From Candidatus Heimdallarchaeota archaeon (GTDB lineage: Archaea > Asgardarchaeota > Heimdallarchaeia > JABLTI01), in NCBI GenBank assembly GCA_018238155.1, contig JABCTZ010000045.1, forward strand, positions 36,452-100,451: a stretch of 64,000 nucleotides of DNA. The letters run 5' to 3'. Positions within the stretch are counted from its first letter, which is position 1. Each line of letters begins with the position of its first letter. Of the stretch, positions 23,991 to 31,316 are shown in pieces. The notes beneath the pieces are model-generated. The model was not told the DNA's origin and did no database searches. It saw nothing but the letters and a program-made list of their open reading frames with translations. A program made the position numbers and the translations under genes.

Positions 23991-25640
23991 TTAATCTAGC
24001 TCAAAATCATCATCATAGTTTTGAGGTTTAGTTGATGTGTTCTTTTGGTTTTTTATCGCGCTTTTCCATGATTCTGTAATAGGTACGCCTTTACCTCCGA
24101 GTTTACCTTCAAACTTTGCGATTTTTACAAGAGCTGGAATTGGTAAACTTGGTCCAACAACAACTGCTTCTCCTACATTGAGTGATGGTAAATCATTCAG
24201 TAGATCATCACTTAAACTCTCACTCGAGCGTAAAATTTGTTGCTGATCATAAGGGTTAACAATTCTTAGAATAATTTGGGTATTACATTGTGATAAAACA
24301 TCACTATCGAGTCTTCCAGGTCTTTGAGAGATTAATCCTAATCCCACACCAAATTTTCTCCCTTCTGCCCCAATTTGCTTCAAAGCTTGTGAAGATCGCC
24401 CTGACTGTGGTATGAAATTATGTGCTTCCTCAATTACCATTAGTACTGCACATGGTAATTTTGATTTTGTATCTTCATTTCTTGCTTTTGCTCTTCCGGC
24501 AGTAAATATTTTCCTGGCTAGTAAATCTACTATTGTTTGTTGAGTTCTAGTTCCAAGACCTGAAAGTGTGATAATACTAATTTGATTTGGTTTTACTAAT
24601 GAAGGTCCACTTGAATTATAAATCGGTAATTCTGAACTCTTAGTTAAGACATCTTTTGCTGGAGCTAAATCTATTCTTGAGAATAAACCGTATTTGGAGT
24701 TCTCGAGTCGATTTGCTTCTTTTTTCTTCTCCCCCTCTCGCAAATCTTTAATAATAGCATCTATTTTTTCCTTTAAATCATCTAAATCCCAATCACGATT
24801 ACTTTGTTGTAATTGCCAATAAGCTCTACTAAATAGATCCCTTTGAATGGTTGCTTTCTCAGGGATCTCTAAAAGAGATAGTAATTCATTATGTCTAAAG
24901 TTTCTTAGTTTGAAAGCTATTCTTTGTCTACCTACAGTTCGTTTTGCAGAAAAGACAACCACATCACCAATAATTTTTTTATTCTTAGCAAATGGAACGT
25001 AATCCTCGTGAGGATCAACAATTACTATAGATCCACCTAATTCATTGACTATTCTCGAGACAATAATTGCTACACTGTAAGATTTACCAGCGCCGGTAAT
25101 AGCTAAAACGGCAAAGTGTTTTGATACCAATTCATCAATATTCAATTTAACTGGTACATCAGGATGAGATCGAAGATTTCCAACAGTGATGTGTCCATTA
25201 CCAAATATTTTAGCTAGAATTTCACGAGGTGCACGATAAATTTTTGCACCTGGATAAGGTGGAAAGCGTGGAGAGATAATTCTATTATTTTTTTCTTCTA
25301 AAAAACCAAGAATTCTTGCAGTGGCCCCCAAGCGTTCACCATCTTCAAGTCTTCCCAATAGAAGGAGTTTATCAATAGATTCTGGCGATTTGATAAGACT
25401 TTCAATCAGATTCTCGTTTGAGAGAGCAATTTTTGATATCATTGCAATAACTGGTTGAGGAATAATTTCTTTTGGATAATCAATAACTACAAATTCACCC
25501 ATTTCAAGAGGTGCGCTTCGAGCGATTTTAGGATCTACCACAAGAGTAACCTCACTTGGAGTTGATACACCAACAATAGTGGCTACGGGTTTGTTATTAT
25601 TCCCTCGAGATGAATTTAGTTTAGACACTTTAGTAAACAC
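23991..25640 (-). CDS. herA: HerA helicase/translocase
   Basis: HAS barrel, HFAVLAITGAGKS, IEEAHNF, EGRKFGVGL, SQRP; directly upstream of mre11-rad50. Confidence 0.93.
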   Translation of the reverse strand: MFTKVSKLNSSRGNNNKPVATIVGVSTPSEVTLVVDPKIARSAPLEMGEFVVIDYPKEIIPQPVIAMISKIALSNENLIESLIKSPESIDKLLLLGRLEDGERLGATARILGFLEEKNNRIISPRFPPYPGAKIYRAPREILAKIFGNGHITVGNLRSHPDVPVKLNIDELVSKHFAVLAITGAGKSYSVAIIVSRIVNELGGSIVIVDPHEDYVPFAKNKKIIGDVVVFSAKRTVGRQRIAFKLRNFRHNELLSLLEIPEKATIQRDLFSRAYWQLQQSNRDWDLDDLKEKIDAIIKDLREGEKKKEANRLENSKYGLFSRIDLAPAKDVLTKSSELPIYNSSGPSLVKPNQISIITLSGLGTRTQQTIVDLLARKIFTAGRAKARNEDTKSKLPCAVLMVIEEAHNFIPQSGRSSQALKQIGAEGRKFGVGLGLISQRPGRLDSDVLSQCNTQIILRIVNPYDQQQILRSSESLSDDLLNDLPSLNVGEAVVVGPSLPIPALVKIAKFEGKLGGKGVPITESWKSAIKNQKNTSTKPQNYDDDFELD

Positions 25641-26048: not shown

Positions 26049-27179
26049 CTATAATCCATTTTTTACAAATGCACCTAATAGAACTAACGCAACAGTAGTA
26101 ATTACAATTATTACACTCGTTGATGTAACTAATTGCCAATTTTTCATTTTTTCTGCTTTTGAAGTATGAATAATATAAAATGTATAAATCCAAACGACAT
26201 ACTGTATTAAAAATACCCAATATAGAGAATTAAATCCTACAAATGCTAAGAAGATACTTTTGTAAATATCAAAATTCTTGACATATGAGATTATAATAAT
26301 AGTAATCCAAACTACAACAATTACTATAGTAATACAAATACGAATTATTGAATTTGCAGAATCTAATGGGAAAGGTAAAGAGAGTAATGCAAATAATAGA
26401 CCTAAATCTTGATCTCGAGTAACATGAACACCTAATACACCTTGAATATACAAAAGAGGATCATTAAGAAATGGTATACTAAAGAGTGTAATTGTTACAA
26501 ATAAAACAACAATTTTAGTAAAAAGGTTGGAGAAATTGCGTTCATGAACATCATTTTTTAGAAAGAATGGTACAAGAATTAGTGCTATTGGCTTAGTTAA
26601 AATAGCCAATGAAAGAAAGATTCCTTCGAAGAAATAAATTTTTTCTTCATTAAAAATACAAGCTAGCAAAATGAAAACAAACATTAGTGAATCAAATTTC
26701 CCATGCATTGCTCCAGTCATAAGTACCATTGGTGTAAGAAACCAAACAGCTATTGGTATTTTCAGTCGCCAAACATTATTCACTCTTTTTTGAAGTATGA
26801 TGTATAATAGAGCTATCACTTGTAAATCAAATAAAAGTATAAGACCCTTTGTTATTCCAAAAAACCAAGTTTCAGGAAAGATTATGAGAATTAATGAACT
26901 GACGTACATCCACAGGGGAAAATAAGCATAAAAGTGTTTTATGCCTTCTACTTGAAAACTTTCTAAAGTAGTTTGATAAGGATTTTCACCATTCAAGAAC
27001 AATTTTGCTGCAGCCTTCCAGACAAAAATATCTGTGGAAGTAAAATTCCAAAGTAAAATTCTAGCAATTATTCCTGCGAGAATGATAATACCAAATACTA
27101 TCCATGAGGAATTATTTGGAGAGAAAAACTCTCTAATCTTTGGAAATTTTGATTCTGTAATCAATCGTTCTTCGTACAT
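26049..27179 (-). CDS. GT-C fold membrane glycosyltransferase (GT87/PIG-M-like)
   Basis: TD..V, GENPY, YAYFP, GKFDSL, LTKP; multiple TM helices. Confidence 0.8.
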   Translation of the reverse strand: MYEERLITESKFPKIREFFSPNNSSWIVFGIIILAGIIARILLWNFTSTDIFVWKAAAKLFLNGENPYQTTLESFQVEGIKHFYAYFPLWMYVSSLILIIFPETWFFGITKGLILLFDLQVIALLYIILQKRVNNVWRLKIPIAVWFLTPMVLMTGAMHGKFDSLMFVFILLACIFNEEKIYFFEGIFLSLAILTKPIALILVPFFLKNDVHERNFSNLFTKIVVLFVTITLFSIPFLNDPLLYIQGVLGVHVTRDQDLGLLFALLSLPFPLDSANSIIRICITIVIVVVWITIIIISYVKNFDIYKSIFLAFVGFNSLYWVFLIQYVVWIYTFYIIHTSKAEKMKNWQLVTSTSVIIVITTVALVLLGAFVKNGL

Positions 27180-27325: not shown

Positions 27326-28063
27326 CTAGAGTGTTTTTTCTACCTCTTTCTGATATCGTTCTGATTTATCGCCGAATTTTCTCTCTGTTTTTGATATTAA
27401 TCTTTGAATATTTTCTCTATGGCTCCATATAATGAATAATCCTGCTACAAATCCACTTACAGTTAATGGAATACATGTTATTAAATCCAATCCCATTATA
27501 AAATAGGTTTCAAGAAAGATGAAAATTGCAGATAAAGGCATTGTGATAATATTTGCTAAAGAAGTATACTTTGTTGTAAAAACAACGAGAAACCAAACAA
27601 TTACCAAAACCAATGCAGTAACAGGAACAAAGTTAATGAATACTCCTGCAGTTGTTGCCATTCCTTTTCCACCTTGGAATTTCAGAAAAATTGGCCAATT
27701 ATGACCCACTACAGCCATTAATCCTGCAATTACTACTATAGCTTGTGGTATTGGTTCTGTAAAACCCATTGTATAAACAAATTTTGTTTCTGGTTGAGTA
27801 ACTATTACAGCGTAGTGTATTATTAACCGTGCAGCCCAAGCTACTACACCCCCTTTTACCACTATATCAACCACTAGAGTCATAATTGCAGACCCTGTGC
27901 CCAATATTCGATAAACATTTGAAAATCCAGTATTCCCGCTCCCGAAATCTCGTATATCTATTTTTTTCAACAATTTTCCTAAAACATATCCTGTTGGGAA
28001 ACTACCAATTAGATAGCTTCCAATAATAACCATTAGATATATTGCCCAATCTGGTAGTGCCAT
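27326..28063 (-). CDS. plsY: acyl-phosphate:glycerol-3-phosphate acyltransferase PlsY
   Basis: YLIGSFP, DIRDFGSGNTGFSNVYR, GHNWPIFLKFQGGKGMAT, HRENIQRL. Confidence 0.93.
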   Translation of the reverse strand: MALPDWAIYLMVIIGSYLIGSFPTGYVLGKLLKKIDIRDFGSGNTGFSNVYRILGTGSAIMTLVVDIVVKGGVVAWAARLIIHYAVIVTQPETKFVYTMGFTEPIPQAIVVIAGLMAVVGHNWPIFLKFQGGKGMATTAGVFINFVPVTALVLVIVWFLVVFTTKYTSLANIITMPLSAIFIFLETYFIMGLDLITCIPLTVSGFVAGLFIIWSHRENIQRLISKTERKFGDKSERYQKEVEKTL

Positions 28064-28135
28064 TTTAACTTCTTCCTGCTGTGTTTTCCTATTTTTTCCT
28101 CTTTTTTAAGGATTCTCCTCTTTCTCAATCTTTGC

Positions 28136-29008
28136 TCACCTAATTAAATAGCTAAAGTATATTGAGCCAGGACCTAAATGGCTTCCAACAACAGGTCCAA
28201 TTAATTCGATGAATTGTGTTGTGCAGCCAAATTCATTTTCAATTTTCATACTCAAAATTTCTGCCTCATTGTGTATGTTTCCATGAGCAAGAGCAATAAT
28301 TGAATTGCTATCTAATCCTTCTTCTTTTAGATATTCGATCATCCATTCTATTGCATTTTCTCTTCCTTGCACTGTCGTAAGGCTGGAAGTTTCTCCTTCT
28401 TGTACAGTTAAAATTGGTATCCTATTTAGGAGAGTTCCTACAAGCCCTTTTGCACGACCTATTCTTCCACCTTTAATTAGATATTTTAGTGTGCTTGGAT
28501 AACCAATAACATTTACTTTTTCAATTGCATATTCTACGAGCCTACAAATTTCTTCAATTTCCATCCCTTGATTAGCAGCCCAAGCTGCTTGCAAAACAAT
28601 TAGAGCTAAGGATGCTCCAGTAGTTTTCGCATCATAAATTCTAATATCAATAATTGGAAACATTTTTTTGGCATTTTCTGCGGATTTTATTGTTTCGCTC
28701 ATCAAACTTGAAATATGTATTGAAATAACTCTTTCAGCTTCATAAGCTGCATCTTCATAAGCTTGATAGAAGTCTAAGGTAGAAGGTGGTGAAGTAGAAG
28801 GAGTTTTCTTCAAAAAAGGCATTTTATTATAGAACTCTTTTGAGTTCAAATCTACTCCTGCGGTAAAAACTTCCTCGTCCATATAAACTTTTAAAGGTAC
28901 AATTATTATCCCCAATTCTTTTGCCAAAGCTTCAGGTAAATCACATGTACTATCTGTTATAATTTTAACTTTTGGCAATTCCTTTGTACCTCTGTATTTC
29001 AATCTCAT
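28136..29008 (-). CDS. fakB: DegV-family fatty acid-binding protein (FakB)
   Basis: IITDSTCDL, PSTSPPS, ISSLMSET, YLIKGGRIG, IGPVVGSHLGPG. Confidence 0.93.
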   Translation of the reverse strand: MRLKYRGTKELPKVKIITDSTCDLPEALAKELGIIIVPLKVYMDEEVFTAGVDLNSKEFYNKMPFLKKTPSTSPPSTLDFYQAYEDAAYEAERVISIHISSLMSETIKSAENAKKMFPIIDIRIYDAKTTGASLALIVLQAAWAANQGMEIEEICRLVEYAIEKVNVIGYPSTLKYLIKGGRIGRAKGLVGTLLNRIPILTVQEGETSSLTTVQGRENAIEWMIEYLKEEGLDSNSIIALAHGNIHNEAEILSMKIENEFGCTTQFIELIGPVVGSHLGPGSIYFSYLIR

Positions 29009-29115
29009 TTATTGTTCAATGAGCTTTGACTACTTTGAACATAAGAAAATAAAAGAGTTATTCCCTCAAAGGAGGAAATAATTGATTTGTTGATTTTTAC
29101 GTGCAGTTTGCTAAA

Positions 29116-30060
29116 TTATGCTGCTTCTTCTACAAACAAAAATTCTCTATGTTGCTTGGACATATCATCGATTTTTAGTCGAGATATTGCACCGAATTGT
29201 TTGCAGTGTTTAATTGTATTCTTTGGATCATTTGTATGAATATGAACTCTTATCATATCAGCATTTTTTGCTACTACTAATGAACCACCAAATTCAGCAA
29301 GCATTTCTCTGGCAGATTTAGCAGTTAAGTCTTCAGATTCAATAATGAATTCTGTACAGAATTGATATTCATCATCTACTTCTGTGTCTCGAACAACTAC
29401 TTCTATTTCTTCAGTTGCTTCATTTGTGACAGTTATGTCTTCATTTCTGAATACTTTTAGCCATCCTTCCATAATATAAACGAAACCTTGCCCGCCAGCA
29501 TCAACAACGCCTGCTTTTTTAAGTACAGGTAGAAGATCAGGGGTCTTCTCAAGAGTTCCTTGTGCAGCCTCATAAGAGGTATTTAGCATTTCAATAAAAC
29601 CAGATCCATTTTTAGCTGCTAGATTAGCTGCTTCTGCTGATTTTCGTATTACAGTTAAAATTGTTCCCTCTTGGGGATTTAAAACTGCTTCATATGCTTT
29701 TGCTGCACCATCAACAAAAGCTTGTGAGAATTCTTCTGGTCCTATGTTCTCAAAATTATTCATCGAATTACTAAAACCACCGAAAAATTGTGATAAAATC
29801 ACACCGGAATTACCGGTCGCGCCCATAAATGATCCTCTAGCAATTAGTGATGCTGTTTCTGCAATTGAACTTGAATCAGTGCCATCTAATTCTTCGATTA
29901 TTGCTTCTACAGTTAGGTACATATTTGCACCAGTGTCACCATCTGCAACTGGGAAAACATTTATTGCATTGAGATGTCTTCGATATTTTTTCAGCAAATT
30001 CGCGGATGCTCGCATCATATTTGATAACGTCTCACCAGAGAATAGTTGAAGTGTTGCCAT
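29116..30060 (-). CDS. fakA: DAK2/DhaL-domain fatty acid kinase subunit FakA-like (lacks the C-terminal domain)
   Basis: LNAINVFPVADGDTGANM, GNSGVILSQ, EGTILTV, GVVDAGGQG, FCTEF, RVHIHT, KIDDM..QH; ATG 30060 with AGGAG SD. Confidence 0.88.
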   Translation of the reverse strand: MATLQLFSGETLSNMMRASANLLKKYRRHLNAINVFPVADGDTGANMYLTVEAIIEELDGTDSSSIAETASLIARGSFMGATGNSGVILSQFFGGFSNSMNNFENIGPEEFSQAFVDGAAKAYEAVLNPQEGTILTVIRKSAEAANLAAKNGSGFIEMLNTSYEAAQGTLEKTPDLLPVLKKAGVVDAGGQGFVYIMEGWLKVFRNEDITVTNEATEEIEVVVRDTEVDDEYQFCTEFIIESEDLTAKSAREMLAEFGGSLVVAKNADMIRVHIHTNDPKNTIKHCKQFGAISRLKIDDMSKQHREFLFVEEAA

Positions 30061-30440
30061 TTTTTTCTGTCTCCTGTTTAATTTTGTAAAATATACAAGT
30101 ATAAACAATTTCTATGCTTATTTTAACTAGCAGACATTTAAACATTTCTTTTATGACTAAAAAATACTACGAAACGGTTGTCATCTTAACGAAAAACGCA
30201 CAAGGCACCACGTTTTATTGTTTTTTAAGAATTTATTTGTAAGGAATTGAAGCAATTCGTTTAAAAGAATGCGATTTTCGTAGATGAATTAAACCCACAT
30301 GTTTTTGCAGAATGGCGATTTAAATAAATTCTAATTTTAACAATTAATTAAAGACCGAATAAAATAACAATCAATATTTATTTCAAAGGGTCAAAAAAAA
30401 TCTTTGGTCAAAAATCTTTATTACTTCAGAGGACTTCATC

Positions 30441-31316
30441 TTGAAAAGAAATCGAGTTGTAAAAATGAAAATTGGTGCACATGTATCTATTTCTGGATCA
30501 ATTGAGTTATCAGTTGATAGAGCTTTAGAAATCGGATGTGATACATTCCAAATTTTTACAAGAAGTCCTCGCAGGTGGTTATCTAAAGAATTACAAAACG
30601 ATAAAATTGAGAAGTTTAGATTCAAACTCAAAAATTCATCACTAGGTCCTGTGTTTTCTCATATCCCTTATCTTGCTAATCTTGCAAGTTTAGATCATGA
30701 AATATGGAAAAAATCTCTTAAAATGATGACTGAAGAGCTTAATAGATGTGATAAATTGGATATTCCCTATATTGTAACACATTTAGGAAGCGCAAAAAGA
30801 GCAGGGAAAGAATTAGGTATTACTAGATTAATTTCATCAATAAACCTCATTTTTGAGGATTATAGTGGTAAAACAAAAATTCTTCTGGAGAATACAGCCG
30901 GCAAAGGAAATAAATTAGGTACTAATATTGAAGAAATTTGTCAAATCTTATTACAAATCAATAAATTTGATTCTATTGGGCTATGTTTTGATACCTGCCA
31001 TGCATTTGCCTCAGGATATGATCTACGGAAAGAGAAAGTAGTTAACAATCTTGTTTCTGAGATTCATGATTTAGTGGGAATTAAGAAACTAGTGTGTATT
31101 CATAGTAATGATTCTCTCTTTGATTTAGGAGAAGGTAGAGATCGACATGAACATCTTGGTTTAGGAAAAATCGGTGATTTAGGATTTCATAATCTTATTA
31201 AAAATAAAAAATTGAACAAAGTTCCTTTCATATGTGAAACGCCAGTTGATAGTGAACGAGATGGTAAAGAAAATATAAGATATTTAAGAGATTTAGAGAG
31301 GAAATGCAGAAAGTGA
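30441..31316 (+). CDS. nfo: endonuclease IV
   Basis: IGAHVSISG, HIPYLANL, ENTAG, CFDTCH, DRHEHLG, CETP. Confidence 0.95.
   Translation: MKRNRVVKMKIGAHVSISGSIELSVDRALEIGCDTFQIFTRSPRRWLSKELQNDKIEKFRFKLKNSSLGPVFSHIPYLANLASLDHEIWKKSLKMMTEELNRCDKLDIPYIVTHLGSAKRAGKELGITRLISSINLIFEDYSGKTKILLENTAGKGNKLGTNIEEICQILLQINKFDSIGLCFDTCHAFASGYDLRKEKVVNNLVSEIHDLVGIKKLVCIHSNDSLFDLGEGRDRHEHLGLGKIGDLGFHNLIKNKKLNKVPFICETPVDSERDGKENIRYLRDLERKCRK

Follow-up and report, generated by a model that had tools for sequence, protein, structure and literature searches.

Gene content and setting of the cassette

We analysed a window of 64,000 nucleotides (the whole stretch of DNA considered here) from a Candidatus Heimdallarchaeota genome. 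As the preliminary description of this DNA had reported, three co-oriented open reading frames lie on its minus strand: fakA (29116..30060), fakB/degV (28136..29008) and plsY (27326..28063). Firstly, fakA specifies a two-domain kinase of 314 aa when read from its first ATG at 30060, the frame being open from a TTG at 30108. Secondly, fakB encodes a protein of 290 aa, or of 280 aa if translation starts at TTG 28978; relatives begin about 10 codons later than the start at 29008, and this TTG, with AAGGA just upstream, may be the real start. Thirdly, plsY encodes a protein of 245 aa, by family score an acyl-phosphate:glycerol-phosphate acyltransferase.

Profile searches identified the flanking genes as those for HerA, a GT87-like membrane protein, Nfo, Nep1 and HypD, which confirmed the earlier reading that the cluster is flanked by archaeal genes (herA, nep1). 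The herA gene (23991..25640, minus strand; DUF87/HerA, 140.5 bits; NF040819, 303.9 bits) provides an archaeal chromosomal context and occupies the same position in relative G090. The divergent neighbour of fakA, nfo (endonuclease IV; 30441..31316, plus strand; TIGR00587, 268.5 bits), is taken as context only; it has the same position in 8/8 loci of the window's family. Downstream of plsY and co-oriented with it lies a gene for a GT87-like polytopic membrane glycosyltransferase (26049..27179, minus strand; PF09594, 29 bits for a cut-off of 25), possibly linked to the cassette. This gene follows plsY in all four relatives with enough sequence, three of which carry a 2.5-kb insert in the plsY-GT87 gap.

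The predicted fatty acid kinase and its putative carriers across the class

FakA matches Pfam Dak2 (PF02734, 144.7 bits) and FakA-like_M (PF21645, 83 bits), and aligns to residues 10-322 of Streptococcus suis FakA (PDB 7w7h_A) with 198 bits. The Mg/nucleotide motifs DGDTG, GNSG, EGT and VVDxG are present and invariant in an alignment with bacterial FakA. In the middle domain, the alignment with 7w7h_A pairs FCTEF with CTE and HIH with HVH, at the positions of the Cys/His-x-His triad, which is catalytic in Staphylococcus aureus (Cys240/His282/His284; PMC9136124). FakA falls below both whole-protein cut-offs (TIGR03599, 342.9 versus 396.1; NF038248 (FakA_VfrB), 250.1 versus 975), a shortfall explained by the missing third of the profile. 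Its match to TIGR03599 YloV covers profile positions 1-299 of 530 and the sequence stops after the middle domain, without the C-terminal FakB-binding domain (FakA_C, PF13684), for which a profile search of the genome returned no match; the lack of this domain had been correctly read from the start. Weak FakA_C matches among relatives of the class fall on DegV paralogs, and no true FakA_C was found in the class. The two-domain FakA is a natural form.

An engineered S. aureus FakA that lacks the C-terminal domain (FakA_NL) is an active kinase in vitro, and activity is also restored by separate FakA_N and FakA_L (Subramanian et al. 2022, PMC9136124); loss of FakA_C need therefore not inactivate the archaeal kinase. 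However, the FakA_NL assay required 10 µM enzyme, the Km for FakB1 was 0.99 µM with FakA_NL versus 0.09 µM (PMC9136124), and single mutations at the FakA_C-FakB interface of S. suis abolish activity (PMC10848957). The interface mutants and the high enzyme concentration indicate that bacteria pay a price for this loss, for which the archaeal enzyme must somehow make up. In a class without FakA_C, FakB probably docks directly on the Dak2 domain, at the place that FakA_C takes in bacterial FakA, by analogy with DhaK on DhaL.

FakB matches DegV (PF02645) with 245.8 bits (cut-off 27) and TIGR00762 with 266.9 bits (cut-off 99.7). Twenty-four solved DegV/FakB relatives were found at E<=1e-10, among them Thermus thermophilus DegV (2dt8, 124 bits) and S. 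aureus FakB2 (4x9x, 106 bits). FakB keeps the Thr of TSxPS (T72), the Ser of HISxxMS (S104), the Arg of GGRIG (R182) and the His of GSHLGPG, which show little or no variation among the operon copies. By motif position, they are the putative counterparts of the carboxylate-binding Thr/Ser/His network of the S. aureus protein and of Arg173 of SaFakB1, the conserved Arg needed for kinase activity. The genome has 11 DegV/FakB paralogs, 17-56% identical, which would share one FakA kinase.

We surveyed 400 Asgard genomes; the window's class comprises seven families, with 83 genomes. DegV, by family search, occurs in 71/400 genomes and FakA, by single-protein query at E<=1e-10, in 66/400, both exclusively in this class. 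FakA and DegV strictly co-occur with PlsY, which is present in all seven families; in f6, the three genes are found together in the same ~10 of 22 genomes. PlsX was detected in 0/83 genomes of the class, a match in G079 being rejected as below the cut-off. The survey also gave the distribution of the operon across Asgard that the preliminary description had proposed to establish: fakA-degV-plsY operons occur at 8 loci in family f1 and, with overlapping genes, in f6. In family f7 and three further assemblies, PlsY, Dak2 and FakA_M form a single protein of 571-602 aa, whose gene is followed by degV with a 4-nt overlap; the contigs with the fusion also carry archaeal ribosomal proteins and Arf-like GTPases. 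In family f3 the kinase is split into two genes, FakA_N (227 aa) and FakA_M (~100 aa). The triad Cys is missing from FakA of f6 and is replaced by Ser or Thr in two of the five f3 FakA_M genes read. The operon PlsY of f6 and f7 belongs to a divergent subfamily, distinct from the window type, so that the f1 and f6 operons may have separate origins. Family f20 (135 genomes), taken to be Lokiarchaeia, has PlsY frames of ~400 aa and neither FakA nor DegV.

The genome is a metagenome-assembled genome (MAG) with 5.9% estimated contamination, and two near-identical database proteins are named Zixibacteria or Bathyarchaeia. We therefore weighed whether the cluster could have come from bacteria through an error of binning or assembly in an archaeal MAG, or be a very recent transfer without function. 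The cassette, however, is located centrally on a 100-kb contig, flanked by herA/mre11 and nep1, and GC content is even over the region. The order herA-orf93-GT87-plsY-fakB-fakA-nfo recurs in independent congeneric assemblies, without exception among those examined, and a chimeric assembly is rejected on this ground. Furthermore, the two-domain architecture is found in all seven families and in none of the bacterial relatives listed, the closest of which are 35-44% identical to FakA. A related-locus search of genome contigs gave only bacterial three-domain FakA loci. Phylogenies had been suggested as a check. A single branch with an SH-aLRT of 98 separates archaea from bacteria in the FakA tree (24 archaeal and 74 bacterial rows), and the archaeal families cluster by taxonomy, a topology that fits vertical descent over contamination. 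The window-type PlsY, in contrast, branches within bacterial PlsYs, though with weak support. To the extent that sequence data allow, contamination is refuted, and we give this explanation almost no weight.

At most 7% of the sampled words were found in sequencing runs, and four of these runs showed relatives 90-96% alike. In one metatranscriptome, contigs tile the whole fakA of a relative 90-96% alike; they cover fakA only, and are a weak hint that bears on fakA, not on the expression of fakB or plsY or on operon structure.

PlsY paralogs and the lipid-gene inventory

The window PlsY matches PF02660 with 160.6 bits and passes the equivalog cut-off of TIGR00023 (154.6 versus 137.2). Alignment with Aquifex PlsY (PDB 5xj5), from whose structure the residue roles are known (PMC5700162), revealed that S35, N37, R45, H92, G102-G105, H177 and N180 are kept (Aquifex numbering). 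The glycerol-phosphate clamp S35/R45/K104/N180 and H177 are all there, as is the acyl-phosphate site, with H92, N37 and the phosphate hole GGKGMA. Catalytic residues are thus conserved in FakA and PlsY, as are the putative ones of FakB, in agreement with the intact motifs first noted, and motif 1 of PlsY does read GSGNTGFSN. Two residues deviate from the Aquifex enzyme, T41 being S and S142 being N. The T41S substitution leaves Aquifex PlsY with 45% activity, and S occupies this position in 3.1% of natural PlsYs (PMC5700162); S142, a poorly conserved position, is the only G3P-contacting residue changed. The window PlsY also has an insert of ~30 aa ahead of the His92 helix.

Six PlsY genes are present in the genome, three of which adjoin a degV. 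The five paralogs of the window copy score 81-99 bits, below the TIGR00023 cut-off, and carry acceptor-residue changes (N37S+T41R; S35T+T41M; S35I+R45M); in the copy with S35I+R45M the phosphate clamp is broken. These paralogs bear on an alternative in which the kinase acts as proposed here but PlsY or its paralogs acylate another acceptor, such as G1P, lyso-PA (in place of PlsC), geranylgeranylglyceryl phosphate or a non-phosphorylated alcohol, and so yield something other than ordinary 1-acyl-G3P. Two further points fit it: PlsC is missing exactly in the families in which PlsY is expanded, and bacterial PlsY takes G1P as well as G3P (PMC13400652), so that family membership does not fix the stereochemistry of the product. 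For the window copy, however, the conserved G3P contacts and the equivalog score argue against another acceptor, as does the gene inventory of the window's family, sampled in 12 genomes. G1P dehydrogenase was detected in none of the 12, the candidates being Fe-alcohol dehydrogenases, whereas the genes for two GDPD enzymes and for a GlpD-type dehydrogenase were found, and G3P would probably come from one or the other. In the window's family, G3P is thus more likely than G1P as the acceptor, and we regard a different acceptor as unlikely.

GGGPS was likewise not detected in the 12 genomes, and searches of the genome's ORFs with jackhmmer and a lineage-specific HMM, both built from f5-f7 sequences, gave no match; weak PcrB matches in f3 proved to be hexulose-6-phosphate synthase. 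Searches for PlsC, GpsA/GlpK and CdsA, which the preliminary description had put forward, were negative. PlsC and GpsA (GpsA_C) were each found in 0/12 genomes, an apparent GpsA being PanE (ketopantoate reductase); CdsA was not detected in the family, an apparent match being CarS; and the single FGGY kinase passes the xylulokinase cut-off, not that of GlpK. From the bacterial phosphatidic-acid set (GpsA, PlsX, PlsY, PlsC and CdsA), only PlsY was detected in the family. A DGGGPS-like prenyltransferase (C15:34779-35720) and CarS are present in the family, and the genome encodes a type-I FAS-like megasynthase together with acetyl-CoA carboxylase.

The same inventory could be read in another way, with the module serving outside membrane lipid synthesis, in fatty-acid detoxification or turnover, in energy conservation by the reverse reaction, with ATP made from acyl-phosphate and ADP, or on lipids other than fatty acids, for example isoprenoid acids held by DegV. 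The onward phospholipid enzymes of bacterial type were not found, the divergence of the 11 DegV paralogs suggests many ligands, and Coleman et al. 2019 (PMC6431249) considered it unlikely that archaeal PlsY/PlsC take part in membrane synthesis. Nevertheless, the kinase and its carriers are tightly tied to a membrane acyltransferase, by the operon, the fusion and the repeated DegV-PlsY pairs, and there is no PlsX phosphotransacylase in the class to join acyl-phosphate to thioesters. The FAS-like megasynthase and the loss of G1PDH also fit biosynthesis, and we consider a role outside membrane lipid synthesis quite improbable.

A proposed acylation route and its relation to known systems

The identities of the genes, their intact catalytic residues, their co-occurrence across genomes, the fusion and the lack of PlsX lead us to infer that the cassette probably encodes a stripped-down fatty acid kinase coupled to PlsY, for acyl-phosphate-dependent acylation of glycerol-3-phosphate. 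FakB (DegV) would bind a free fatty acid, obtained by uptake or from the genome's own FAS-like megasynthase. FakA_NL would then phosphorylate the carboxylate with ATP to yield acyl-phosphate, the Dak2 domain holding ATP and two Mg2+ while the middle domain would dimerise the protein and supply the Cys/His-x-His triad. FakB would hand the acyl-phosphate to the membrane protein PlsY, which would acylate glycerol phosphate at its 1-OH, giving lysophosphatidic acid. A complete ACP- and PlsX-independent route to this product from scavenged fatty acids had been claimed at the outset. The lack of PlsX, the intact residues, the co-occurrence, the operon and the fusion all favour such a route, but scavenging is not required, since the genome encodes a FAS-like megasynthase. 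With PlsC, GpsA and CdsA not detected, the route would be complete only to lyso-PA, a product without a known onward route.

Step for step, the family's PlsY, DGGGPS-like and CarS genes complement those that were not detected (G1PDH, GGGPS, PlsC, CdsA). This raises the tentative idea that the family has swapped the entry steps of archaeal ether-lipid synthesis for a fatty-acyl route. Fatty acids from the FAS-like enzyme or uptake might pass through FakA_NL and the FakBs to PlsY paralogs acting on G3P, the second position being filled by a PlsY paralog or the DGGGPS-like prenyltransferase and CarS providing activation, to give ester or mixed ester/ether phospholipids on G3P. If this were true, such lipids would bridge the lipid divide in nature, and would do so in the archaeal class closest to eukaryotes. 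With G1PDH, GGGPS and PlsC undetected, PlsY and DegV multiplied and a FAS-like synthase present, the membrane chemistry of the window's family cannot be textbook archaeal unless other enzymes fill these gaps.

'Orphan' PlsY/PlsC homologues have been reported in Asgard, MG-II and DPANN archaea (Villanueva 2017; Coleman 2019, PMC6431249; Manoharan 2019, PMC6737245; PMC13400652), and the earlier literature on archaeal homologues already credits Heimdall LC_2 with both PlsY and PlsC. These reports name no acyl-phosphate source, and our literature search found no paper linking DegV or FakA (Fak) with Asgard. Asgard PlsY, known since 2017, was dismissed as an orphan, since archaea lacked PlsX and any other supply of acyl-phosphate. 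The predicted fatty acid kinase, native to these archaea, conserved, and fused to PlsY in one lineage, would supply the missing donor, and turns the question of ester lipids in the relatives of eukaryotes into a three-gene reconstitution experiment.

The closest known system is FakA/FakB of Firmicutes (S. aureus, S. suis 7w7h, Bacillus subtilis YloV/DegV), with which the cassette shares the Dak2 domain, the Cys/His-x-His middle domain, a DegV carrier with, by motif position, the conserved Arg, and the predicted feed to PlsY. It differs in its archaeal host, in its sequence (35-44% identity), in the lack, throughout the class, of FakA_C and of PlsX for acyl transfer to ACP, and in having one kinase for 11 FakB paralogs. 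In domain content the window FakA equals the S. aureus FakA_NL construct, and the FakA_N and FakA_L expressed separately are mirrored by the two-gene kinase of f3 (PMC9136124). Those constructs, however, were truncated in the laboratory and have a Km for FakB that is 11-fold worse, whereas the archaeal form is natural, class-wide and, in one family, fused to PlsY; the natural FakA_NL, split and fused forms can thus inform the bacterial Fak mechanism, in particular the need for FakA_C. Compared with the bacterial PlsX/PlsY/PlsC pathway, the window PlsY is of the same family as Aquifex PlsY and has the same acyl-phosphate and G3P contacts apart from the two substitutions given above, while PlsX, PlsC, GpsA and CdsA were not detected in the window's family. 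Lastly, in DhaK/DhaL a Dak2 nucleotide subunit acts on a substrate held by a separate EDD-fold subunit, as in FakA/FakB, and the comparison drawn for the S. suis enzyme (PMC10848957) suggests that the docking geometry is likely similar. FakA differs from that pair in its predicted substrate, a fatty-acid carboxylate and not dihydroxyacetone, in its extra middle domain, and in working with neither DhaK nor DhaM.

The fakA-fakB-plsY locus and its genomic setting

The locus consists of three co-oriented minus-strand ORFs: fakA (30060-29116, ATG start), whose product combines Dak2 (144.7 bits) with a FakA-like middle domain (83 bits) and has no further domain; fakB/degV (29008-28136), a full-length DegV (245.8 bits; TIGR00762 266.9, cut-off 99.7); and plsY (28063-27326; PF02660 160.6 bits; TIGR00023 154.6, cut-off 137.2). 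The preliminary description of these genes, including the absent FakA C-terminal domain and the PlsY motif GSGNTGFSN, was right in all details. On the plsY side the locus is flanked by herA, a small membrane ORF and a GT87-like polytopic glycosyltransferase gene (26049-27179, same strand as plsY and 146 nt downstream of it), on the fakA side by nfo, nep1 and hypD, and GC content is even across the fakA-fakB-plsY region. In the 107-nt fakA-fakB spacer, an imperfect inverted repeat (TTCCTCC...GAGGGAA) precedes a T-rich stretch (29041-29100); this arrangement may be a terminator or attenuator separating the kinase from the two downstream genes.

The window (G000:C6:36452-100451) belongs to a 4.08-Mb genome assembly of 46 contigs, 90.7% complete with 5.9% contamination, and a chimeric assembly had been named as one case against the locus. 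This was not borne out: 8/8 loci extracted from the window's family (f1, 12 genomes) share the order nfo / fakA-fakB-plsY, with protein identities of 52-97%, the order plsY-GT87-orf93-herA on the far side is likewise retained in relatives, and near-identical database proteins bear the names Candidatus Heimdallarchaeota or Asgard group archaeon. We therefore rejected an assembly artefact. Three of four relatives have a 2.5-kb insert between plsY and the GT87-like gene. At L023:2564-3406, from a genome of the same genus (G084), the operon fakB is read in two pieces, a 97-aa and a 175-aa ORF; a stop codon in frame, or an error in sequencing, could account for this.

Distribution, gene architecture and phylogeny

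We surveyed 400 Asgard genomes. FakA (protein query) matched in 66, all within the seven families of the window's class (f1-f7, 83 genomes); DegV was found in 71, in these families only, and in 0 of the 317 genomes outside the class. PlsY occurs in 158 genomes, among them all of f1-f5 and f7, half of f6, and f20, a large family outside the class that has PlsY without FakA or DegV; PlsX was not found in the class. The f20 PlsY frames, about 400-430 aa with ~200 extra residues each, often stand in tandem, with as many as four within 6 kb (e.g. G270:C6:56828-62954).

Mapped across Asgard, as the preliminary description had suggested, the three-gene operon recurs in f1 and, with overlapping genes, in f6, where fakA, degV and plsY are present together or absent together and an alpha/beta hydrolase follows the operon (L048). 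The f6 FakA (L048:5944-6969, L049:5947-6963) lacks the conserved triad Cys (CTE replaced), with the degV/plsY operon intact. An N-terminal PlsY, Dak2 and the FakA middle domain are fused into one protein of 571-602 aa in f7 and in three other assemblies (L051:4968-6725 in G079; L050:2717-4525 in G080; L182:6001-7716; L183:170-1933), and degV always follows, overlapping the stop of the fusion gene by 4 nt. The fusion contigs are Asgard, with archaeal r-proteins L5e/L19e/L32e and an Arf-like GTPase. By the Rosetta-stone argument from domain architecture, the fusion is evidence that PlsY and the two-domain kinase would act together at the membrane. In f3, two of whose genomes are single contigs, FakA is split into a Dak2-only FakA_N gene (227 aa) and an unlinked middle-domain gene of about 100 aa (L052:7944-8627 in G016, and L072-L076), which in closed genomes lie >1 Mb from each other; 2/5 middle-domain genes have Ser or Thr in place of the triad Cys.

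A FakA tree of 24 archaeal and 74 bacterial rows, cut to the N-terminal and middle domains and with the nearest matches as its only bacterial rows, parts Archaea from Bacteria by a single branch (SH-aLRT 98), and within Archaea the families follow taxonomy; the bacterial relatives listed, at 35-44% identity, are all three-domain. Window-type PlsY, always GSGN(T/I)GFSN, forms a tight Heimdall clade whose placement inside the bacterial PlsYs is weakly supported, and the other PlsY paralogs of the window's genome, together with the f6-operon PlsY and the f7-fusion PlsY, fall into three deep archaeal lineages. The window-type clade being separate from the f6-operon lineage, the f1 and f6 operons carry different PlsY subfamilies.

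PlsY, its paralogs and the remaining lipid pathway

Aligned to Aquifex PlsY (5xj5), the window PlsY keeps Ser35, Asn37, Arg45, His92, Gly102-Gly105, His177 and Asn180, with Thr41 replaced by Ser and Ser142 by Asn. T41S leaves 45% activity and Ser occupies position 41 in 3.1% of natural PlsYs, and position 142 is conserved to only 52.6% (PMC5700162). In FakB the motif residues Thr (TSxPS), Ser (HISxxMS), Arg (GGRIG) and His (GSHLGPG) are all present.

The genome encodes one FakA, 11 DegV and 6 PlsY; paralog identity is 17-56%, and 3/6 plsY genes adjoin a degV. The five further PlsY (C1:62726-63415, C13:74263-74979, C39:40263-41003, C1:109694-110404, C44:32780-33541) fail the PlsY cut-off with altered acceptor residues; motif 1 variants include GSGSVSTRN, HTRNPGGMN and NIGNPGGFN, and one paralog lacks Ser35 and Arg45, both of the phosphate clamp. 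The ten further DegV lie at C44:45129-46040, C44:47072-47956, C3:4569-5438, C10:109409-110335, C13:73367-74260, C7:301644-302582, C15:314791-315681, C1:110434-111330, C4:19416-20330 and C15:401249-402358; C13 and C1 each carry a DegV-PlsY pair. Directly upstream of the C1 pair is a 136-aa PLAT/LH2-domain protein (L054:7503-7913), and downstream are two DUF2229 proteins and a BadF/BcrA-type ATPase (L054:589-5204).

The search for PlsC, GpsA and GlpK that the preliminary description proposed returned neither of the first two from the window's genome, and as a GlpK candidate we rejected its sole FGGY kinase, which scores as a xylulokinase. PlsC is absent from f1 (0/12), f2 (0/1) and f3 (0/31) and present in 38/39 genomes of f4-f7; the families without it are those with many PlsY and DegV copies. 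GpsA and PlsX were found in none of the 12 f1 genomes. G1P dehydrogenase (G1PDH), at 220-467 bits in 69/71 genomes of f2-f7, is found in 0/12 of f1. GGGPS, found in f6 and f7, was detected in none of the 12 f1 genomes, and a lineage-specific HMM gave no match in the window's genome; the G1PDH absence is the firmer of the two, because Heimdall GGGPS scores low against the Pfam model. f1 retains CarS and a DGGGPS-like UbiA enzyme, and the window's genome has a GlpD-type G3P dehydrogenase, slightly below its cut-off, and two GDPD enzymes. It also encodes a type-I FAS/PKS-like megasynthase of 3574 aa, NMO-type ER-KS-AT-ACP-KR-PPTase (C15:409896-420620, L184:8897-19621), beside acetyl-CoA carboxylase subunits (carboxyltransferase, biotin carboxylase, BCCP), biotin ligase and an alpha/beta hydrolase (L184:3538-8839). 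Upstream of the megasynthase, at a distance of 7.5 kb, is a 369-aa DegV extended at its N terminus.

As the best-supported prediction from sequence, FakB and the N-terminal plus middle domains of FakA (FakA_NL) would convert a fatty acid, which may be endogenous as well as scavenged, to acyl-phosphate, and PlsY would convert this to 1-acyl-glycerol-phosphate. Bacterial PlsY and PlsC accept G1P (PMC13400652, a 2026 paper that also names Asgard plsY); G3P is the likelier acceptor in f1. The genes present and those undetected complement each other, a pattern that allows a chimeric or fully acyl lipid pathway in f1, a tentative and rather improbable reading. Asgard PlsY and PlsC have been published (PMC6431249; PMC6737245); we found no paper linking DegV or FakA with Asgard or archaea.

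A two-domain FakA and the proposed docking of FakB

FakA spans positions 1-299/530 of the YloV model and 4-316/549 of the FakA model, and owing to this partial coverage falls below both curated cut-offs. Its alignment to S. suis FakA (7w7h_A, 198 bits) covers residues 10-322 of the latter and retains DGDTG, GNSG, EGT, VVDxG, Cys (FCTEF) and His-x-His (HIH); the middle-domain Cys and His residues are catalytic in S. aureus (PMC9136124). PF13684, the model for the C-terminal FakB-docking domain (FakA_C), has 0 matches in the window's genome and, among the 83 genomes of the class, gives only weak cross-matches, to DegV paralogs, which makes two-domain FakA the native form throughout the class. 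In S. aureus, FakA_NL retains catalytic kinase activity, its Km for FakB1 being about tenfold higher, and separate FakA_N and FakA_L restore activity (Subramanian et al., PMC9136124). S. suis FakA_C-FakB interface mutants are inactive (PMC10848957), so the archaeal FakA, devoid of FakA_C, must dock FakB in another way. By analogy with DhaL-DhaK, in which the Dak2-type subunit contacts its substrate-holding partner directly, we infer that the archaeal FakB would dock directly on the Dak2 domain of FakA with the same geometry, as DhaK does on DhaL.
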